Source of the DNA: an archaeon
GTDB taxonomy: Archaea > Iainarchaeota > Iainarchaeia > Iainarchaeales > Iainarchaeaceae
Direction of reading: 5' to 3'
DNA length: 64,000 nt
NCBI GenBank assembly: GCA_035289625.1
Contig: DATDWP010000028.1
Coordinates: forward strand, 9,840-73,839
Part shown: positions 4,539 to 45,024 of the stretch, in pieces
How positions within the stretch are numbered: the stretch's first letter is position 1
Layout: each line of letters opens with the position of its first letter
Notes under the pieces: generated by a model
Databases searched by the model: none
Seen by the model: only the letters and a program-made list of their open reading frames with translations
Told to the model about the DNA's origin: nothing
Program-made: the position numbers and the translations under genes

Positions 4539-5072
4539 ATGACAAAAATGCAAAAAGGCCAGATATTTTCAATCGATTTTTTGATAGCGGCAACACTCAC
4601 AGTTCTTGCAATTGGCCTTCTTCTCGGATATTATGAAACAGCAGCAACTTATGAAAAAGAAACCAGAATGAAAAATGAGTTCACTGCAATAGCCCTAAAT
4701 GCGAGTTCAATACTACTTGAAAAAAACCCCTGCATTCGAAGCGCTGGATTTAGTTCACAAGGATATAATGTTACTGGCTGCTCTGAGGAGACAAATTTTA
4801 ATAATTTCTCCAAAACGCAGCTCATGATACCTACTGGATTTAATTGCTACATCCACTGGGAAGGCCCTGACCCTTACAATGGGACACTGGGTGGCTGCAA
4901 TCAAACGGACCCCGGGACAACCCCATTAGACATTGTATCAATACAAAGGCCATTTGTCTCCCCACCACTCTCAACCGGCCTAACAAAGGCAGGTTATGAA
5001 AAATGCATTGAGGAAAATAATTGCCAGGATACTTACCTAGAATTCACACTCACGGTGAAAATATGGAAATGA
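4539..5072 (+). CDS. archaeal type IV pilin-like protein
   Basis: MTKMQKG|QIFSIDFLIAATLTVLAIGLLL. Confidence 0.55.
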   Translation: MTKMQKGQIFSIDFLIAATLTVLAIGLLLGYYETAATYEKETRMKNEFTAIALNASSILLEKNPCIRSAGFSSQGYNVTGCSEETNFNNFSKTQLMIPTGFNCYIHWEGPDPYNGTLGGCNQTDPGTTPLDIVSIQRPFVSPPLSTGLTKAGYEKCIEENNCQDTYLEFTLTVKIWK

Positions 5073-26349: not shown

Positions 26350-29300
26350 TTAGAGCAAATCCTCAATATCTTTTGAAGCAGCATCCTTTGTATCCTCAAA
26401 ATCAACTGCCGCCTTTTCAAGTGTTGTCTCATGGCGCGAATCTTGCGAGAGCTTTTTTCTCACCTTGAAAAAAACAGGAAAGTTCACAGCTTCCCCGACA
26501 ATTAAAGCTTCGCCTGTTCGCATTGTAGTTATCATATCAAGGCTACGCTTATCTAGCCCTTCACTAGTTTTTCCAATATGGTCAAGATCGTAAGGGTTTG
26601 TCACGCGCAATATTATATGAGTGTTGCACTGGGAAAGGGCTGTTGTTGAAAGATTTATCGGGCGCTGGGAAATTAGACAAATTGTTGCCCCGAACTTTCT
26701 TCCCTCGCGTGCAATTGTTTCCAAAATCCCCCTGCTAATTGCACCCTCTTTTGAAACCTTTTCCGGGATGAATTGGTGCGCCTCTTCAAGAACCATTGTA
26801 AAGGGCGCGATTTTTTTGTTCTTTCTTTCATAAAATAATTTTGACGAAAAATACGCAACAATTATCTGCTTTTTTTTCATATCAACAATATCGCTAAGAT
26901 CAACAATTGTAAGCTGCCCAGGCCTTATCAGATCATTAATGCTCGGGCTGTCTGTTTTTGAAAATAACCCAAGCTGCTCAAGTGACATAATCCAACCAAC
27001 AAGTGATTGCTTTGTTGCTTCCTTCATCTCTGTGTCTTTGAAAATTTCCGATTTTACCGCGCTAAAATCAAATGGCCCGAGCCCTTCTTTCATTTCCCTT
27101 TTCAATTTTTCCAAAACGCGCGCAAGATCCCTTTTTTGCGGGGATGTGAGCCCGGGAATAATCGAAGCCAGCATTCCAATTGAGAGCTTTGGGACCCCTA
27201 TCTGAATTTCCGGGGCCCTAATATATCTTGTTTTTGAAGAAAAATCAGCATAGCGAGAATCTGTCGGGGGCTCAGCAAATGAACGGTACTCTCCGTGCGC
27301 GTCCATTACAATTACTGCAATTCTACCATCCTCTTTTTTTCGCGCAAGGAGCTCTTCAAATAAAACAGAAGTTAGATAGCTGTTGTGTACAATAATTTCA
27401 TTTGCTACAAAGTTTGAATTTTCAACTGAAATATCATAAACATATTTATAGGCGGGTTTTATTTTCTGTATGTCTTCTACTGTGTCAAAAAATACATTCA
27501 TTTCACAAAATTTTTTAACTACACTTATCCGTGCTCTTGCATTGATCAAGTTTTGGCTGGATTCTTGTGCAATTTTTTTAAGTGAATCTGCAAAAGACAG
27601 CACCAATGAATTGTCAGCTTGGCCTCTTCCTTTTGAATGGCTATAGAGAAATTGTTTGTAACACCCATTAGTTTTGCACAATCCCTCGGTTGAATAACCC
27701 AAAGACTCGCAAAAAGCCTTAATTTCAGAAAGAGCCTTGTTTCTATCATCAGAACACACCCTTTCAAGGCCATTTAAGTTCCCACCCTTTATCTTTAACA
27801 CATTTTTTGCAAGAATGAAAGTCGTATTTTTAGGGGATGTTATTTCCCGAACAACCCTTCTTGCAGTGGTGCTTGACACCCCACTACCGGCAGCAATTTG
27901 ATTAAAATCAAGACCCTCAGAATATGCAGTTTTTAGTATTTCAAGAGCGTTCTGCTCAGATATAGGAATCAATGTTTCAAATACTGAATTTATTTTTACC
28001 AATGTATTTTCAATCTCTTCTGCCCGTTTTTCAAAAAGCCCAATAAGCACTCTCAAACTTTCCCTCGAAGGATTATCCTTACGGTAAAGGTAATTATTTA
28101 TGCCTGAAGACTCTTTTTGCGGCTGTGGCATTCTTAGCAATGAAAGTATTTCCGCAAGATGCGTATGTGTATGCGGTACAACATCAATATTCGTGTTGGG
28201 TTTTGTATGAACCCATTTATCCAATGCGGATTTTTTGTAATCTATCAGCAGGTTTAAATCGTGCAATTTGCGTATTTCCCCCGAGCCACTCACTAAAACT
28301 CTCTGGTATTCTTCCCCATCCACTATTTTGACACTGCGAAGCGTTATGACCCCTAACTTCGTAAATATTTCCTCTACCCCATCAGCTAGCCTTTTGCCGG
28401 CAACTGTTACATCTAACTCTGATTTATCCGGGTTTACATACCCATCACAATCGATAAAAGCCGAGATAAAATTTTTTAGGACATTTTTTTCACTTTGGAG
28501 AATTTCATCCGGAATGAATTTTGTCCAACTTGATTTGGTAAAACCATAGCCATTTAGGCATCGTGCGAGGACAATAGAATCTATTAATAATTCCCCTTTG
28601 GATTTGGCCTTTTTCACCCTGAGAGCAAATTTTTCTTCACAAATATCGGTAAAGTCTTTTTGTATTAGCTGATTTTCATTCGAGAAATTCATCCTCGATT
28701 TAAGCGTATTATGGCCTTCGGCAATAAGGTAGGCCATAAGTCTTGCAAAGCGTTCATCAACAGAATATAAAAGTTTGGTCGAAATCTTCGACTGTTTTTG
28801 GATAGCATATCCATCTTCCATCTTAACCCCCTTGAATTTTGCAGCTGAAGCAGTGAAATCTATTTGGGACTTTTTCCCAACCCAATCTACTCTTGGCAAA
28901 AATACATAATCATTTACCGAAATATTTTGTGCTTCTTTCCATTCAATTGCCCCGTTAAATACAGGCACCAAATGTTCTGGCGTCACCTCAATTTCTTTTC
29001 CAGTCCTTGTTTTTATCCGAATGGCATTTTCCGGAGCCTTTCTCCTATAATACCCAAGTATTTTCCCCGGAACTACCTTATTGACAGACTCTGAAAGCGC
29101 ATACGCCCTCAAATCAAAATCCTCTTCCCAAAACTCTACTCCATTTTCAACTTTCTTATTTTTTTCCAACACAGAATCTACAATCCCACCAATGGTTTTC
29201 TGTGCGCTATTCTCAAGCAATATTTTCGTGTCAGGTTTTACACATTTACCGGCACCAGACATCGCCAAAATCGCAAGGTGCTTTTGGAAAAGGCGTGAAA

Positions 29301-29799
29301 GATTTAATTTTACCGAAACATCATGATGCTCAATTTCGCCTAGCATTAGCCCTTTTTGCAAATCAAGGCCTAGGAATTTTTCCAAAGTTGCCCTTACTGC
29401 TACGCGCACTTTTGTTCCGGGGGAAGGCGGAAAAGTTGCGCGCCTCATTCTGCCTTCATTATATACACCCAAAGGACGGGTTTTTGCAACCAAATATTCC
29501 CACTCATGAGCAGGAAATTGCTCGAATAATTTTTTTCCGGAAGATTCAAATTCTTTAACACTTTCAAATCTTTCAAAATACCTATTTGTTTTGAGAACAT
29601 CGCCGACAAGGCAAACCATTGTCCCTTCACTATAATCAAGCTCAACAAATTGGCCGCGATGAATTGAACCAGAATATACAACAAAATCCAGTGAACTTGG
29701 GGATGGGCCTTCCATACTGCTAACAACAGTTCCGATTTCACCCTCTTTTAATTGCGGCAGATTTTTTAGCTGCTCATCTGAAATCTGCGTTTCATTCAC
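26350..29799 (-). CDS. herA: HerA-like helicase/ATPase with an intein in the P-loop
   Basis: Exteins (185 + 343 aa) rejoin as ...LAILAMSGAGK|SYLTSVLFEELL (Walker A GAGKS); C-extein has a Walker B/HerA-like core; intein begins with Cys after GAGK and ends VHN|S. Confidence 0.8.
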   Translation of the reverse strand: MNETQISDEQLKNLPQLKEGEIGTVVSSMEGPSPSSLDFVVYSGSIHRGQFVELDYSEGTMVCLVGDVLKTNRYFERFESVKEFESSGKKLFEQFPAHEWEYLVAKTRPLGVYNEGRMRRATFPPSPGTKVRVAVRATLEKFLGLDLQKGLMLGEIEHHDVSVKLNLSRLFQKHLAILAMSGAGKCVKPDTKILLENSAQKTIGGIVDSVLEKNKKVENGVEFWEEDFDLRAYALSESVNKVVPGKILGYYRRKAPENAIRIKTRTGKEIEVTPEHLVPVFNGAIEWKEAQNISVNDYVFLPRVDWVGKKSQIDFTASAAKFKGVKMEDGYAIQKQSKISTKLLYSVDERFARLMAYLIAEGHNTLKSRMNFSNENQLIQKDFTDICEEKFALRVKKAKSKGELLIDSIVLARCLNGYGFTKSSWTKFIPDEILQSEKNVLKNFISAFIDCDGYVNPDKSELDVTVAGKRLADGVEEIFTKLGVITLRSVKIVDGEEYQRVLVSGSGEIRKLHDLNLLIDYKKSALDKWVHTKPNTNIDVVPHTHTHLAEILSLLRMPQPQKESSGINNYLYRKDNPSRESLRVLIGLFEKRAEEIENTLVKINSVFETLIPISEQNALEILKTAYSEGLDFNQIAAGSGVSSTTARRVVREITSPKNTTFILAKNVLKIKGGNLNGLERVCSDDRNKALSEIKAFCESLGYSTEGLCKTNGCYKQFLYSHSKGRGQADNSLVLSFADSLKKIAQESSQNLINARARISVVKKFCEMNVFFDTVEDIQKIKPAYKYVYDISVENSNFVANEIIVHNSYLTSVLFEELLARKKEDGRIAVIVMDAHGEYRSFAEPPTDSRYADFSSKTRYIRAPEIQIGVPKLSIGMLASIIPGLTSPQKRDLARVLEKLKREMKEGLGPFDFSAVKSEIFKDTEMKEATKQSLVGWIMSLEQLGLFSKTDSPSINDLIRPGQLTIVDLSDIVDMKKKQIIVAYFSSKLFYERKNKKIAPFTMVLEEAHQFIPEKVSKEGAISRGILETIAREGRKFGATICLISQRPINLSTTALSQCNTHIILRVTNPYDLDHIGKTSEGLDKRSLDMITTMRTGEALIVGEAVNFPVFFKVRKKLSQDSRHETTLEKAAVDFEDTKDAASKDIEDLL
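27382..29244 (-). mobile_element. intein (621 aa) with LAGLIDADG homing-endonuclease domain inside herA
   Basis: Block A Cys1 (GAGK|CVKPDTKILL); LAGLIDADG-like motifs LMAYLIAEGHN and ISAFIDCDGYV; C-terminal block EIIVHN followed by Ser+1. Confidence 0.75.
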
Positions 29800-29912
29800 T
29801 GCAAATCACCAACCGCAGGCCCTTCATAACCACAATCAGGGCACCTATACTGCCTACCCCCCAAATCCAGAGCTTCCTTCATCTTCTTTGACCTACATCG
29901 CGGGCATATCAT
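29796..29912 (-). CDS. 38-aa zinc-ribbon protein (not in the ORF track)
   Basis: Hand translation MICPRCRSKKMKEALDLGGRQYRCPDCGYEGPAVGDLQ*; two CxxC pairs; its TGA stop overlaps the herA GTG start as GTGA. Confidence 0.45.
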   Translation of the reverse strand: MICPRCRSKKMKEALDLGGRQYRCPDCGYEGPAVGDLQ

Positions 29913-30387: not shown

Positions 30388-30801
30388 TCACACAACCCTT
30401 ACTTTTGCCTCTTTCACTCTTTTCCACTCCTTATCGCTCGTGACTGCCGTCGCATCGTTTTCGATAGCTGTTTGTAGTATTATGGCATCAGCCATTGAGA
30501 GATTGAGGTCTGTATGCCTGCTTTTCAAAAATGCCGCTTTCTTTGCTATTTTGAGGGTCGGCTCAATAAAACTCCCAATTTTCTCGAAAAATACCACTGA
30601 TTTTACGGCTGACCTTATATTCTTCCTCTTCAAGGTTGTTATAAGCTCAAAAGCCGAGAGCGTGCTTGCAAGGCAATTAATTTCCTTTTTGCTGCCCTTT
30701 TCAAGTAGGTAACCAACCTTTTTGCTGCCCTTTTCTGCGATAGCGAATTTTACCAGTGCGGAGCTGTCAAAAACCAAATCTTTTTTATCTTTTTTTCTCA
30801 T
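30388..30801 (-). CDS. vapC: PIN-domain toxin (VapC-like)
   Basis: LVFDSSALV N-terminal PIN motif; acidic residues spaced as in PIN; 137 aa; overlaps the upstream small gene. Confidence 0.7.
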   Translation of the reverse strand: MRKKDKKDLVFDSSALVKFAIAEKGSKKVGYLLEKGSKKEINCLASTLSAFELITTLKRKNIRSAVKSVVFFEKIGSFIEPTLKIAKKAAFLKSRHTDLNLSMADAIILQTAIENDATAVTSDKEWKRVKEAKVRVV

Positions 30802-31018
30802 CTTCTTGCCTCATTTTCTTGATATCTGAAGATTTTATGCCGGCCCCTTTTGCGATGCCGTAAAGCGCCGCTACAGGATCTTTTGGAACCGGTATCAAAA
30901 GTATCCCTTCAGGAACTTTTTCCACGACAAATTCCGTGCCAGAAAACCAATCCTCTTCTTCCCTAATTTGCGCCGGGAGTACCAACTGCCCCTTTGAAGA
31001 AAGTATTGTTCTATACAT
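30785..31018 (-). CDS. vapB: AbrB/SpoVT-type antitoxin (VapB-like)
   Basis: 77 aa; LSSKGQLVLPAQIRE swapped-hairpin motif; overlaps vapC start. Confidence 0.7.
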   Translation of the reverse strand: MYRTILSSKGQLVLPAQIREEEDWFSGTEFVVEKVPEGILLIPVPKDPVAALYGIAKGAGIKSSDIKKMRQEDEKKR

Positions 31019-31066: not shown

Positions 31067-32158
31067 TCAAAACGGCCTATTATCCCTTCGCATCCTCATT
31101 TTCACAGACGCCCCCAATTTATCCATAATTTTATTGTACACAATATCGATTTCGTTGTTATTTAGCTTTGCATGAAAATCGGCTTCAATTAGAACCGAAG
31201 GGTATGCGTACTCGCGATGCAAAGAGCTAAGGGCCGTTGCAACACTTGCAATCTCATCTGCTTTTTCAAAAAGCTCTGATTTATTATGGCAAATAAATTC
31301 GACACGAAGCGGCCTATCAAGAGCCGAGGGCTTTACATACAGCCCATAAATGCCCTCTGCCCATTGTGGATTAAAATCAACTAGCACGGGATGCTGTCGG
31401 ATATTTTTTGTATAAGTAAAAGCGCAACTGCGCTCGCCAACTTGCAGGAAATATTCCAAAAGAGAAGAATCAAAAATCCCATCAAGCTCTTCTTTTCTAA
31501 CACTGCCCATCTTTTCTACTACATTGTCTTGCAAAATCGACCGGAAGCGCGAACCTCTACTATCCTCAACAGTTGCAATAAGGGTAGTGTTGTGCTTTTG
31601 CGCCAAAGCATAGAGAGATTCAAACTCACTTATAATCCCGTGATAATTATCGGTTAGTTCGGATTCTTTTCTTGGCTTGTCCTGGTATTGTGGAACAATG
31701 CTCCCGTCAATAAAAAGATATTTCGGAGAGTACTCTTCAATTATTTTTTTTGAAACGCCAACTTCCTCTTTTAACCTCATAAGGCTCTTGCTCTGCTCGG
31801 CTTCATCATCCTCAAGTGATGCTCCTGCAAGATGGGGCTGCGGGAAATTAAAATAACCCGGATGGTATTTTGCGAGGACCACTTTCCCATCAGAATATTC
31901 AAACAAAACCCCCATTGCTCTAATCAGCACAAGATCAATTGTAGCAAGCCGCTTTGCAACAAAACCCGAATCAACCCCTGCAACAAGCCCATTTGGGATC
32001 CACTTTGAAATTGGAAATACAAGCTTTTTTTCAGCAAGTTCTGAAGAGGAAAAATCTAAATATTTTAGCGGCAAGAGGCGCTGCACCACAAATTTTCTGC
32101 GATTCTCCCCATTTGCTATGACATCAACAGTGTGGTCAATTATTGAAGAGATATTCAT
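31067..32158 (-). CDS. nurA: NurA-like nuclease
   Basis: N-terminal LVAGVDSGF motif resembling the NurA catalytic Asp motif; 363 aa; herA on the same strand. Confidence 0.6.
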   Translation of the reverse strand: MNISSIIDHTVDVIANGENRRKFVVQRLLPLKYLDFSSSELAEKKLVFPISKWIPNGLVAGVDSGFVAKRLATIDLVLIRAMGVLFEYSDGKVVLAKYHPGYFNFPQPHLAGASLEDDEAEQSKSLMRLKEEVGVSKKIIEEYSPKYLFIDGSIVPQYQDKPRKESELTDNYHGIISEFESLYALAQKHNTTLIATVEDSRGSRFRSILQDNVVEKMGSVRKEELDGIFDSSLLEYFLQVGERSCAFTYTKNIRQHPVLVDFNPQWAEGIYGLYVKPSALDRPLRVEFICHNKSELFEKADEIASVATALSSLHREYAYPSVLIEADFHAKLNNNEIDIVYNKIMDKLGASVKMRMRRDNRPF

Positions 32159-34035: not shown

Positions 34036-34511
34036 ATTTACAATCTACCCTAATTCATTCAGTTCATGCATAATAACCACAATACGATAATAGAGAATTT
34101 TGAACAAGCATTCATTGATTTGTGCTGCTTTAGTTTTGCCTTTTAGCATACTGAAACTGAGTAGTAGCAGCCTAGACAAAAAAAGAAGCCTTACAACTAG
34201 GACAATGGCACTTGTTTTCCCTTTCTTGAGGGAACTTTACTCTCACGAACGTCTTGGTGATTACAATACGGACAAATCATTTCAATTCTTCCCAATCAAA
34301 TTCACATTCCATTCTATCACTAGTTATTATGTAACTGCAGAGTTTGCAACGCCACTCCACTAGATGAACGGACCCATCCCCCATATACTGAATTAGCTTT
34401 CTAACAGTTTTGAACTTCCCACCACAAGCACAGTAAAACTTTCAACCACTTATTTTAGGCACCTAATAAATATAAGCAAAGATTTAAATAATATAGGTAC
34501 CTAACAACATC

Positions 34512-34673
34512 ATGCGCCTACAAAAACAAATGTCAAGACGAGTAGGGGATGTGGAATATGCAAAATGGGTCGTAGTAATACCCCCAGAAATAGTTGAAAA
34601 AAGCAAATTAAAAGAAGGCCAAGAATTAGAAGCACACGTAGCCGAAGGAAAAATAACTCTAAAACCAAAATAA
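34512..34673 (+). CDS. 53-aa AbrB/SpoVT-like small regulator (not in the ORF track)
   Basis: Hand translation MRLQKQMSRRVGDVEYAKWVVVIPPEIVEKSKLKEGQELEAHVAEGKITLKPK; swapped-hairpin-like V.IP.EI...L.EG.E; palindromes sit directly upstream. Confidence 0.45.
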   Translation: MRLQKQMSRRVGDVEYAKWVVVIPPEIVEKSKLKEGQELEAHVAEGKITLKPK

Positions 34674-35624
34674 CTATTTTAGAGATTTTTTCAAACTATC
34701 AAAACTTTTCTTAAAATTAGCCACAATCTTTTTTGTTTTTGGAAACGATAAGTTCCCGTCATTTTCTAATTTTACTAGATATTTTTTAAATTCATTTTCC
34801 TCTTCAACACTTCTATTTGTTTTACTAACCAATTTTAAAAAAGCGTCATTGGTTTTTGGCACATATAAGATTTGCACCCCTTCACCTACATAATTGTCAA
34901 TTTTTGATTCCTCAATATAATTTATTATAAAACAACCTAATTTTGCCATTTCTTCCATGGTAATTTCATCACTCCACATCGCCTTTAGAAAAGTCTGTGC
35001 ATATGGCGAACCACTACCTATTGCCAAAAAAGTTTTTCTTTTACTATCTAAACAATCAGCAATCTCTAATTTATGTAACTCAGCCTCGCGCCCTGAACGA
35101 AAAGCAATTAAAAGTTGCAATCCATTTGGATATTTTTCCATTATATCTTTGTATTGATTTTTCATTTGAAATAAAATCCCTTCACAATCTTCAACAAACT
35201 GATTTGCATAAGCATATGGACTAATTATCGCATCCAACTCTTCTTGAGTTATTTTTGGATTCTGCTCCTGCATTTGTTTTTTTATTTGTTTTTTCCTTTC
35301 TTCTAAGTTAATGAAAACACGAGCTAAAAATTTATCAAATAATTCAGAAATTCCAGCCCCGCTGAACCCTACGCCCAAAGCATCTACCAAGTAAATTTTA
35401 GGATGTGAAGCAATATCTACACCCTCAACTACTTTTTTGTCGGAAATTATTACTACTCCGTCTTTACAATTTGCCCCTATTACTAATGTCATTTTTTCGC
35501 CATTTTGAGGTTTGTTTTTTAACATTTTCGGCACTTTCTGATAAGTAAGCAAAAACGAAACTATAAATTGTCTTTGATTGCTTATCGGTGTTGACACACC
35601 AAAAAAGTACCTAATTTTAGGCAC
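34674..35624 (-). CDS. HslV/proteasome-beta-like Ntn-hydrolase with an internal insertion and C-terminal extension
   Basis: MTLVIGANCKDGVVIISDKKV...LGVGFSGAGIS and AIGSGSPYAQ match HslV/20S beta motifs (Thr1, Lys33-like, GSG); true start probably internal (MTLVIG near 35492). Confidence 0.55.
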   Translation of the reverse strand: MPKIRYFFGVSTPISNQRQFIVSFLLTYQKVPKMLKNKPQNGEKMTLVIGANCKDGVVIISDKKVVEGVDIASHPKIYLVDALGVGFSGAGISELFDKFLARVFINLEERKKQIKKQMQEQNPKITQEELDAIISPYAYANQFVEDCEGILFQMKNQYKDIMEKYPNGLQLLIAFRSGREAELHKLEIADCLDSKRKTFLAIGSGSPYAQTFLKAMWSDEITMEEMAKLGCFIINYIEESKIDNYVGEGVQILYVPKTNDAFLKLVSKTNRSVEEENEFKKYLVKLENDGNLSFPKTKKIVANFKKSFDSLKKSLK

Positions 35625-35643
35625 CTAAAAGAATAAAAGGGAG

Positions 35644-35922
35644 ATGGTAATGGATTTAGAAGAAGTTAGAAATTTTTTACTCGAAGTAAATAGTTTCTTG
35701 GCTATATTTATATTAACAAAAGACACCGTACCCATTCTTTCTAATAATTGGGAACAAAACATATTTCCTCTAATAACATATGCACTTATTTTAGGAGGAC
35801 TGTCATTTTTAATTGCAAAGTTTATTAAAAACACATTAGCCGGAGATAGAGTTTATGCTCAAGTTATAGCACATATTTTTTTGTTAATTCTATTTACTCA
35901 ATTGCTGACACCTAAATTATAA
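35644..35922 (+). CDS. small membrane protein, hypothetical
   Basis: Three hydrophobic helices. Confidence 0.3.
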   Translation: MVMDLEEVRNFLLEVNSFLAIFILTKDTVPILSNNWEQNIFPLITYALILGGLSFLIAKFIKNTLAGDRVYAQVIAHIFLLILFTQLLTPKL

Positions 35923-44550: not shown

Positions 44551-45024
44551 TTACTTCTTTCTCTTGTAAGAAAACTTTCTCTCAGAAGATGGTGGCATTT
44601 CCCTTACAATGCTTCTCTCAAATGGAATTGCAAAATAACCTGTCCTATAGAGGAAATACCCAATGAATAGAACTGCTAGCCAGAGCAATATACTTGCAAT
44701 CGGCGTTAGAAGACCGCTCCAGAATTGGCGCGCGGTTAATTTTGGCGTTTCCGGTCGCACTACAATTCCTGTTGCCTTGTAGAGCGTATCTGCACAATCA
44801 TTAAAACTTGCCTTCTGATCGGCAATTGCTTGATCGGCATCAATCCCCTGGATGCAGGTACCGTAATATTTCATATTGTCCCAAGAATCAAACATCTTAG
44901 CCGACCCTTGCACAAACATCAAAAATGCTGCAAAAAGAATAAATGAACCAATAAGGCGAGGCAGGTGAACTTCCCTTCCAGCAACCCTAAAATATAGAAC
45001 CTTTTTCATAAAAATGCCTTGCAA
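44551..45024 (-). CDS. membrane protein, hypothetical
   Basis: Two TM segments. Confidence 0.35.
   Translation of the reverse strand: MQGIFMKKVLYFRVAGREVHLPRLIGSFILFAAFLMFVQGSAKMFDSWDNMKYYGTCIQGIDADQAIADQKASFNDCADTLYKATGIVVRPETPKLTARQFWSGLLTPIASILLWLAVLFIGYFLYRTGYFAIPFERSIVREMPPSSERKFSYKRKK

Follow-up and report, generated by a model that had tools for sequence, protein, structure and literature searches.

Palindromic sites predicted as operators of a 53-amino-acid AbrB/MazE-fold protein beside a proteasome-like peptidase gene in archaeal transposons

The window studied here is a 64,000-nucleotide (nt) stretch from an archaeon of the Iainarchaeota (assembly GCA_035289625.1, contig DATDWP010000028.1, positions 9,840 to 73,839, forward strand). 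It carries a gene for a 53-amino-acid (aa) protein of the AbrB/MazE/SpoVT fold, which converges on a gene for a proteasome-like N-terminal nucleophile (Ntn) peptidase, and four sites built on a 12-bp palindrome with the core TTAGG-NN-CCTAA (pattern TTMGGYRCCTAA) lie around this gene pair (Table 1). We propose, at a probability of roughly 0.8, that these palindromes are the operators of the 53-aa protein, which would repress its own gene through them; binding and repression themselves we infer from the sequences and their conservation. The proposed AbrB-like repressor, the sites and the peptidase are the conserved core of an undescribed archaeal transposon family of IS6/IS5 type. The window holds a decayed copy of such an element in which the regulator and the sites are intact, and this copy is immobilised, because its transposase is a remnant and its terminal repeat is unrecognisable.

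Palindromic sites and promoters in the window

A sequence-only reading had reported near-identical palindromes in this region, and its coordinates and sequences were exact: TTAGGCACCTAA is present at sites 1 and 4, TAGGTACCTAA at 34494-34504 lies inside the ATAGGTACCTAA of site 2, and the half-site GTACCTAA is found at 35607-35614. The motif TTAGGNNCCTAA had two exact matches on both strands of the 64 kb against 0.06 expected, and none of 100 shuffles reached two; when one mismatch was allowed, the sole extra match was 34493-34504. The octamer G[CT]ACCTAA occurred exactly four times in the window, always on the + strand (34459, 34497, 35607 and 35621), and all four copies fall within 1.2 kb, in the promoter regions around the convergent AbrB-like and peptidase genes. 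Meanwhile, GGCACCTA at 29840 and GGTACC at 44857 and 63418 are coding, lack the TA arms and were treated as chance. A reading of the palindromes as RNA hairpins was rejected, since a stem of 5 bp is unable to form across a loop of 2 nt; in the window Rfam matched only two tRNAs.

The repeat shared by sites 1 and 4 is longer than the earlier reading had it, with CTTATTTTAGGCACCTAA (34449-34466) and CTAATTTTAGGCACCTAA (35611-35628) identical at 17 of 18 positions. The likeness runs past the palindrome, at 77% over 22 nt (34446-34467 and 35608-35629), and both 22-nt copies include a degenerate upstream half-site. The repeat suggests that sites 3 and 4 were derived from duplication of the site-1 region.

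The anatomy of the window promoters is largely read from the sequence. Reading towards the 53-aa gene, one meets site 1 (TTAGGCACCTAA), TAAATATAAG, 6 nt, TTTAAATA, 2 nt, site 2 (ATAGGTACCTAA), 7 nt and ATG. The archaeal TATA-to-start distance is about 26 nt, and the TATA-like box stands at about this distance from ATG 34512, so the mRNA would be leaderless or nearly so. A class A promoter consensus, ATTTATAAATAAG followed by a site, 7-10 nt and ATG, was found in 10 of the related loci described below, which are cited by their L numbers.

On the - strand, CTTATATTTA is followed by site 1, 4 nt and then AGT-GGT-TGA. The former start codon of a divergent transposase gene would be at 34448-34450, which now reads AGT with an in-frame TGA after it; it is placed there by analogy with the order of site, 4 nt and ATG in L004, L012 and L013. 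A tblastn comparison of residues 368-400 of the IS5-like/SWIM transposase of L009 with window positions 34146-34048 gave 54.5% identity (E 1e-5). In three-frame translation the roughly 420 nt past the former start, of which this remnant is the far end, showed broken open reading frames (ORFs) only, with Cys-pair-rich ORF fragments upstream of the remnant. The position of site 1 is homologous to the transposase-proximal site of about 40 related loci. Because relatives start their transposase at this place and an IS5-like remnant lies beyond it, site 1 is regarded as a putative operator of a dead divergent transposase gene, set between its TATA box and its former start codon.

At the other end of the gene pair, site 4 lies 16 nt 5' of ATG 35644 (or 22 nt 5' of ATG 35650) of a gene for a predicted 92-aa membrane protein, and by their position and by the orientation rule of the family sites 3 and 4 are most plausibly a putative operator of this divergent gene. 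The 92-aa protein had no Pfam or NCBIfam match, and none of the related loci has a homologue; the small membrane genes that lie divergently in L001, L038 and L041 were considered as its relatives and showed no detectable relationship. Towards the peptidase gene, sites 3 and 4 are 35-65 nt 5' of its putative TATA box and 78-103 nt 5' of ATG 35525. The claim that two sites overlap the start of the peptidase gene is therefore correct only with the mechanical start GTG 35624 and fails with ATG 35525, which is the start preferred here.

Table 1. Coordinates of the sites, promoter elements and genes of the decayed element and its neighbour in the window
Feature	Position	Strand	Description
Site 1	34455-34466	.	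TTAGGCACCTAA; 38 bp centre-to-centre from site 2
Site 2	34493-34504	.	ATAGGTACCTAA; -19 to -8 of the AbrB-like gene ATG 34512
Site 3 (half-site)	35603-35614	+	AAAAGTACCTAA; right arm alone conserved; 14 bp centre-to-centre from site 4
Site 4	35617-35628	+	TTAGGCACCTAA; CCTAA arm directed at the 92-aa gene
AbrB/MazE/SpoVT-fold protein, proposed repressor	34512-34673	+	53 aa; Pfam PF04014
Putative TATA box of the AbrB-like gene	34483-34490	+	TTTAAATA; centre about 26 nt from the A of ATG 34512
Putative TATA box of the former transposase promoter	34467-34476	-	CTTATATTTA; from spacing and the arrangement of related loci
Decayed divergent transposase gene	34048-34454	-	C-terminal 33 codons (34048-34146) left, centre deleted
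Proteasome-beta-like Ntn peptidase	34674-35525	-	283 aa, PF00227 E 5e-13; Thr1 codon 35487-35489
Putative TATA box of the peptidase gene	35560-35569	-	AATTTATAGT; about 40 nt 5' of ATG 35525; predicted
Predicted membrane protein	35644-35922	+	ORF of 92 aa (90 aa from ATG 35650)

The 53-aa protein and the conservation of its sites

The 53-aa ORF noticed by the earlier reading exists, and its product matched Pfam PF04014 (MazE/AbrB/SpoVT) with E 1.7e-8 and 34.7 bits against a cut-off of 24.7; the NCBIfam AbrB-domain model TIGR01439 gave 20.4 bits, under its cut-off of 28.3. The AlphaFold model, a monomer with a pLDDT (predicted local distance difference test) of 90, has a beta-beta-alpha-beta-beta topology, with strands at residues 2-11 and 14-22, a helix at 25-31 and strands at 39-44 and 47-52. 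Foldseek placed the model near C56/pSSVi, MazE, AbrB-N, SpoVT, C68/pSSVx, VapB and Sso7c4; 16 of the 18 top matches were AbrB, MazE, SpoVT, VapB, C56 or C68, and the entries 5itj and 5itm are annotated merely as histone-like protein. Nearly all orthologues have 53-58 aa, that is, the DNA-binding domain only, and a few cluster members have 60-92 aa. Their conserved part is the N-terminal half, which contacts DNA in the AbrB/MazE fold. A two-fold symmetric dimer of the protein would fit the 12-bp palindrome. A classical type II antitoxin was also considered and rejected, as the gene has no toxin partner, no operon and no C-terminal toxin-binding tail. The one partner that recurs is the convergent proteasome-like gene, whose 3' end overlaps that of the 53-aa gene in most loci. 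The Pfam search showed no toxin family adjoining the 53-aa gene in the window, and the PADLOC search for defence systems gave no match for the regulator, the peptidase or the 92-aa protein.

Related loci were collected from the contigs of the 12 cluster-level homologues of the peptidase, the only ones in a search of 5.8 billion proteins, together with 22 genome loci and 66 metagenome loci found by alignment. An orthologue of the 53-aa gene converges on the peptidase gene in about 40 non-redundant archaeal loci. Loci with the regulator came from Bathyarchaeia, Methanocellaceae, a Methanosarcinales metagenome-assembled genome (MAG), a Pacearchaeota MAG and many unassigned metagenome contigs. The regulator was present in 41 non-redundant loci, and all 37 with enough upstream sequence have one to five sites (typically two to five) within 150 nt. 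There were 109 sites in the 41 loci, with the consensus T-T-A/C-G-G-T/C-A/G-C-C-T-A-A; the search pattern dictated GG and CC and left free the right-arm flanking T (107/109) and A (106/109). The centre of the site is TA in 76 cases, CG in 20, TG in eight and CA in five. Across 35 non-redundant loci the density of the core GGYRCCTA/TAGGYRCC was 20.7/kb in the 140 nt 5' of the regulator gene, 6.8/kb in the 70 nt 5' of the peptidase Thr1 codon and 0.12/kb in 170 kb of flanks. The enrichment upstream of the regulator over the flanks is about 175-fold, and about half of the flank matches are actually peptidase-upstream sites.

The sites follow directly on TATA-like boxes, at a distance of 3-10 nt from the start codon, and their CCTAA arm is directed into the regulated gene. 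The divergent neighbour varies, being a Zn-ribbon IS6-type, a SWIM-IS6 or a SWIM-IS5 transposase, or in Bathyarchaeia a TrmB-like protein, and the AbrB-like gene is the sole constant gene beside the sites. The Pacearchaeota MAG locus (L107) has the regulator without peptidase or transposase, yet it has two sites, the only ones in 10 kb. In four loci every operator is GGCGCC, and there the protein reads QKRLNRK and WEIDIPP instead of QKQLSRK and YVVVIPP; this is suggestive of co-variation between the central dinucleotide and regulator residues 6 and 8. The conservation of the motif at intact orthologues, its repressor-like position and the co-variation with the protein thus speak strongly for the earlier suggestion that the palindromes are probably the operator set of an autoregulated small regulator. 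Loci L103-L106 belong to the same population as the window, and their intergenic DNA is 100% identical and uninformative for footprinting. L102, the closest distinct relative (58% identical peptidase), had no motif in 250 nt upstream.

The window also encodes a second MazE-fold protein, in a VapBC-like pair of PIN and MazE-fold genes (30388-30801 and 30785-31018, - strand), and no TAGG-NN-CCTA site was found near this pair. The same upstream region has a HerA/DUF87-like ATPase with an intein (26350-29799, -) and NurA (31067-32158, -).

Proteasome-like peptidase and transposon context

The mechanical ORF of the peptidase is 34674-35624 (-), starting at GTG 35624. Alignment with 11 homologues showed a short conserved propeptide followed by an invariant Met-Thr, and because the propeptide is conserved and Thr1 invariant, ATG 35525 was taken as the start; the NCBI call HLC79999.1 in an archaeal MAG likewise has 283 aa. 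The propeptide has 11 residues in the window peptidase and 11-15 aa among the homologues. T13, D29 (Thr1 + 16), K43 and the motif GSGSPYA are invariant in the alignment, and K43 is the probable equivalent of Lys33, with the register 2 off. The AlphaFold model (pLDDT 87.7) has a long helical insertion and a C-terminal helix. The protein had been called HslV-like, and this name was abandoned: the top 50 Foldseek matches and the best PDB sequence matches were all 20S alpha or beta subunits, and the best NCBIfam models were those for the alpha and beta subunits of the archaeal proteasome. Its resemblance is to 20S proteasome beta subunits, not to HslV. IMG/VR contained no relative of it, and a viral origin is not supported.

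The AbrB-like and peptidase genes are convergent with a 0-nt gap (34673/34674), and their convergence means that they do not form an operon. A 3' overlap of 4-27 nt between the two ORFs is present in about 30 of 39 non-redundant loci (L004 5795-5798; L020 about 4766-4783), and T-runs able to terminate either transcript sit inside the opposite gene. It means that the transcripts would have complementary 3' ends, with possible antisense or collision coupling. A comparison of the window with L106, which is the same population from another sample, gave 8 differences in 4251 aligned nt, all within 34637-34707; they hit the convergent junction, where 4 of the last 12 AbrB-like residues are changed and the peptidase C-terminus is truncated. 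These differences could represent a local hot spot, a recombination tract or diversifying selection.

Concerning the start of the peptidase in other lineages, the Bathyarchaeia loci L016-L018, L020 and L055-L062 have no in-frame ATG, GTG or TTG close 5' of Thr1, in the region about 25 nt before its codon (...CCTAAACAAATGGAGACCAGAAATTACG ACT...), and the nearby ATG is out of frame. The start codon or the processing may be unusual in these peptidases.

Of 34 non-redundant loci with an intact regulator, 19 have one site within 75 nt 5' of the peptidase Thr1 codon, and none of the 16 loci whose proteasome homologue has no regulator neighbour carries one (Fisher p 9e-5, computed without regard to phylogeny). 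The 12-mer usually starts at -21 to -47 from Thr1, most commonly at -35, 3' of the TATA box and pointing into the gene. The centre of the peptidase site is that of the regulator's operators in the same locus, for example GGCGCC in L069, L079 and L080. To judge by this placement, control of the peptidase by the regulator is well supported as a prediction across the family. No such site stands before the peptidase in the subgroup to which the window belongs, whose propeptides are of the MKNNKLYLP type, and the window site is an outlier at -139 from Thr1 in the opposite orientation. The earlier idea that the regulator controls the peptidase is thus supported for many relatives; for the window direct control is doubtful. 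The window peptidase may be linked to the repressor only indirectly, through the shared divergent region and the convergent abutting transcription.

Two other features were seen 5' of the peptidase gene in related loci. In L001 (about 815-865), L038, L040 and L041 an inverted repeat AGCCGA-N18-TCGGCT surrounds the TATA box TTTATAAG; this subgroup lacks a TAGG-NN-CCTA site there, and the repeat adjoins the divergent small membrane-protein gene. It may be an operator of another factor. L004 (about 4790-4975) and L012 (about 330-470) share a conserved G+C-rich noncoding block of about 180 nt, which begins with GAAAGGGGGTAGAG and has a long-range closing stem of GGGGGTAG.. and ..CTACCCCC. It had no Rfam match and may be a small structured RNA. 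The 92-aa gene beside the block of L004, read by eye, we take to be the RNase P subunit Pop5.

The transposon context is seen in the related loci. In L019, L048, L069 and L079 terminal inverted repeats of about 50 bp, which begin with GGTTCTGTYAA and have two sub-repeats in each, bracket the peptidase, the regulator, the transposase and a variable cargo. Target duplications of 8 bp were found in L019 (CCCAATAG) and L048 (TGACTTTG) and of about 8-10 bp in L079; L069 showed the terminal repeats only. L110 and L111 have an identical element with a 52-bp terminal repeat. L009, which has an IS5-like transposase, shows a repeat of 17 bp and a duplication of 9 bp around the same cassette. The NCBIfam IS6 transposase model matched in L019 with 125.3 bits (cut-off 125) and in L004 with 80.6 bits, below the cut-off. 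In the window we found no IS6-family DDE transposase, only the 33-codon IS5-like C-terminal remnant, and when the region upstream of the peptidase was compared with that beyond the remnant, no convincing terminal repeat appeared, only a weak resemblance at 35576-35596. The palindromes were also considered as transposon ends and were rejected, since the real terminal repeats differ in sequence.

The cargo is found in the interval from the transposase to the right terminal repeat, at 3621-4565 in L019 and 6277-7599 in L048. By sequence look, that of L019 has a PemK/MazF-like gene with small upstream ORFs, and that of L048 encodes a 440-aa protein like N6/N4 DNA methyltransferases. L004 also has a methyltransferase beside its transposase. 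In L102, positions 1-160, 5' of the closest distinct peptidase homologue (P0002), hold a fragment encoding HNINYHIVFIPKYRK, which presumably resembles the conserved N-terminal region of IS200/IS605 TnpA and would be a further tie of the peptidase gene to mobile DNA. Integrases and other transposases neighbour the peptidase gene in L001-L003. Literature searches returned nothing on a link between AbrB and the proteasome or on a proteasome homologue carried on an IS element, and no paper joining an AbrB-type regulator, the present palindrome motif, a proteasome homologue and a transposon.

Proposed mechanism, alternatives and known systems

In the mechanism that we propose, the 53-aa protein would form a swapped-hairpin dimer with two-fold symmetry, which would bind each 12-bp site. 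As the site lies between the TATA box and a leaderless or nearly leaderless start, binding would block the recruitment of transcription factor B (TFB) and RNA polymerase, which is the usual mode of archaeal repressors. In the ancestral module, one repressor would gate its own gene, the divergent DDE transposase gene and, in many lineages, the convergent peptidase gene. In the window, site 2 would serve negative autoregulation, site 1 would be left on the promoter of the dead transposase gene, and sites 3 and 4 would cover what is presumably the promoter of the divergent gene for the 92-aa membrane protein.

Several points weigh against this mechanism. The sites are assigned to the 53-aa protein by association, and the TATA boxes and transcription starts are predicted from sequence alone. 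The co-variation between operator and protein probably comes from a single clade. The Foldseek E-values for the 53-aa model are weak (0.05-3), though the probabilities reach 0.99; weak E-values are to be expected with so small a domain. Sites 3 and 4 have no counterpart in other lineages, the other carriers being 100% identical copies of the same population. On the side of the peptidase, the Fisher comparison of 19/34 with 0/16 ignores phylogeny, and a site before the peptidase is missing from the subgroup of the window (L001, L004, L009, L012, L013, L038, L041, L043 and L102).

Sites 3 and 4 might also be an operator of the peptidase gene, controlling it directly from 35603-35628. This is compatible with the proposed mechanism, and we hold it as a tentative, minority possibility. 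It agrees with the peptidase having its own same-motif site in 19 of the 34 related loci, and with the location of both sites in a shared divergent intergenic region, 35-65 nt 5' of the putative peptidase TATA box; however, the canonical peptidase sites are at -21 to -47 of Thr1, 3' of the TATA box and pointing inward, whereas the window site is at -139 and reversed, and the nearest relatives of the window have no site 5' of the peptidase. Quite unlikely is the view that the 18-22 nt repeat (34446-34467 and 35608-35629) is a scar of duplication or recombination, or a remnant resembling an attachment site or a target duplication, which would make sites 3 and 4 non-regulatory. Genuine target duplications in this family measure 8-9 bp and border the terminal repeats rather than the operators; the copy at 35617-35628 keeps a perfect 12-bp site with an adjacent half-site at a plausible promoter position, and, provided that the repressor is produced, even an operator that arose by duplication would be bound. 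The identity of 17 in 18 beyond the palindrome itself, the visible rearrangement of this transposon-derived module in the window and the restriction of sites 3 and 4 to the window lineage are what such a scar would explain.

Transposases often autoregulate by binding near their own promoters, and in many loci the sites flank transposase start codons. So the palindromes could be bound by the transposase, through a Zn-ribbon, SWIM or helix-turn-helix domain, or by the TrmB-like protein, with the AbrB-like protein as a bystander. We consider this very improbable, less probable even than the scar, because three unrelated transposase architectures and the TrmB-like protein occupy the divergent position with the motif unchanged, the transposon ends carry another sequence (GGTTCTGTYAA...), the sites persist where the transposase is dead (window) or absent (L107), and the motif varies in step with the AbrB-like protein. 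The idea of a chance cluster of an AT-rich palindrome has the low G+C content of the window (39%) as its sole point and is refuted by the shuffles (0/100 reach two exact matches) and by about 40 independent loci that conserve the motif with about 175-fold enrichment.

Beyond the role of the palindromes as operators of the 53-aa protein, we speculate that the repressor, the operators and the peptidase form a self-contained protease-repressor switch of the new archaeal transposon family, a proposal that we rate as unlikely in its full form. In such a switch the repressor would silence its own gene as well as those of the transposase and the peptidase, and the Ntn peptidase would be the effector of the element. 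The peptidase might degrade the repressor or the transposase, or might be the harmful half of an addiction or defence module, so that proteolysis would determine the timing of transposition or the manner in which the element is kept. Through their conserved 3' overlap, the convergent regulator and peptidase genes would in addition be subject to antisense coupling.

Functionally, the closest parallels are the autoregulated AbrB-type antitoxins on Tn3-family transposons and C68 and C56 of the Sulfolobus elements. Antitoxin autorepressors of the AbrB/MazE/VapB type share the swapped-hairpin fold, the small size and palindromic sites that overlap the promoter of the gene itself. Mobile elements often carry them, Tn3-family transposons included, and for the latter a part in the control of transposition genes has been proposed (PMC7157771). 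In contrast to MazE and VapB, the 53-aa gene has no toxin or operon and converges on a proteasome-like gene, which it overlaps in most loci; its product consists of the DNA-binding domain alone, its promoter is of archaeal design (TATA box and leaderless start), and the sites would also serve the transposase and peptidase promoters. C68/pSSVx, C56/pSSVi and Sso7c4 are likewise archaeal AbrB-fold proteins of 50-70 aa and are top or near-top structural neighbours (7xi6, 3o27 and 2l66), and C68 and C56 are encoded on Sulfolobus plasmid-virus mobile elements; beyond the fold, no sequence relationship to the 53-aa protein was detectable. Sso7c4 has, to our knowledge, no sequence specificity. It is described as a chromatin protein in a passage of PMC3159460. 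For these three proteins the literature searches found neither a cross-phylum 12-bp operator nor an association with a transposase or peptidase.

The transition-state regulators AbrB, Abh and SpoVT of Bacillus have the same N-terminal fold and repress multiple promoters, their own among them. AbrB tetramerises via its C-terminal domain, and we know of no clear consensus for it. Hundreds of genome-wide AbrB binding sites are given in a passage of PMC3025583. The 53-aa protein differs in having a sharp palindromic consensus and no C-terminal domain.

Meanwhile, the elements of the relatives agree with the description of the IS6/IS26 family (PMC7986276) in their GG-tipped ends, the cTGTt motif and the 8-bp target duplications. 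They differ from it in terminal repeats that span about 50 bp and contain two sub-repeats, against 15-20 bp in the family, in transposases with SWIM or Zn-ribbon N-termini, and in a fixed regulator-peptidase cassette with variable cargo; the same cassette also occurs with an IS5-type transposase (L009), and the window copy has no working transposase. The IS6 review lists a single member with a passenger gene (PMC7986276). Among the prokaryotic proteasome homologues of Fuchs, Alva and Lupas 2021 (WPH, PHI, ACC and others), archaeal PHI and ACC share the helical insertion and the C-terminal helix, and the peptidase, likened to them by description, may belong to one of these archaeal groups. Those authors report no informative genomic context for the proteasome homologues (PMC8665760), whereas the peptidase here has a conserved context of regulator, operator and transposon.

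For the window itself the message is more modest: it has a decayed, immobilised copy with regulator and operators still intact. For the family, an archaeal AbrB-fold protein gains a sharply defined, predicted 12-bp palindromic operator that is conserved across phyla, and this offers a ready and testable model of how a common small AbrB fold reads DNA and represses archaeal promoters. Also revealed are IS6- and IS5-type elements whose terminal repeats are long and which carry regulator and peptidase as a fixed passenger cassette. An orphan proteasome homologue thereby obtains its first conserved genomic context, namely a dedicated repressor, shared operators and carriage on a transposon.

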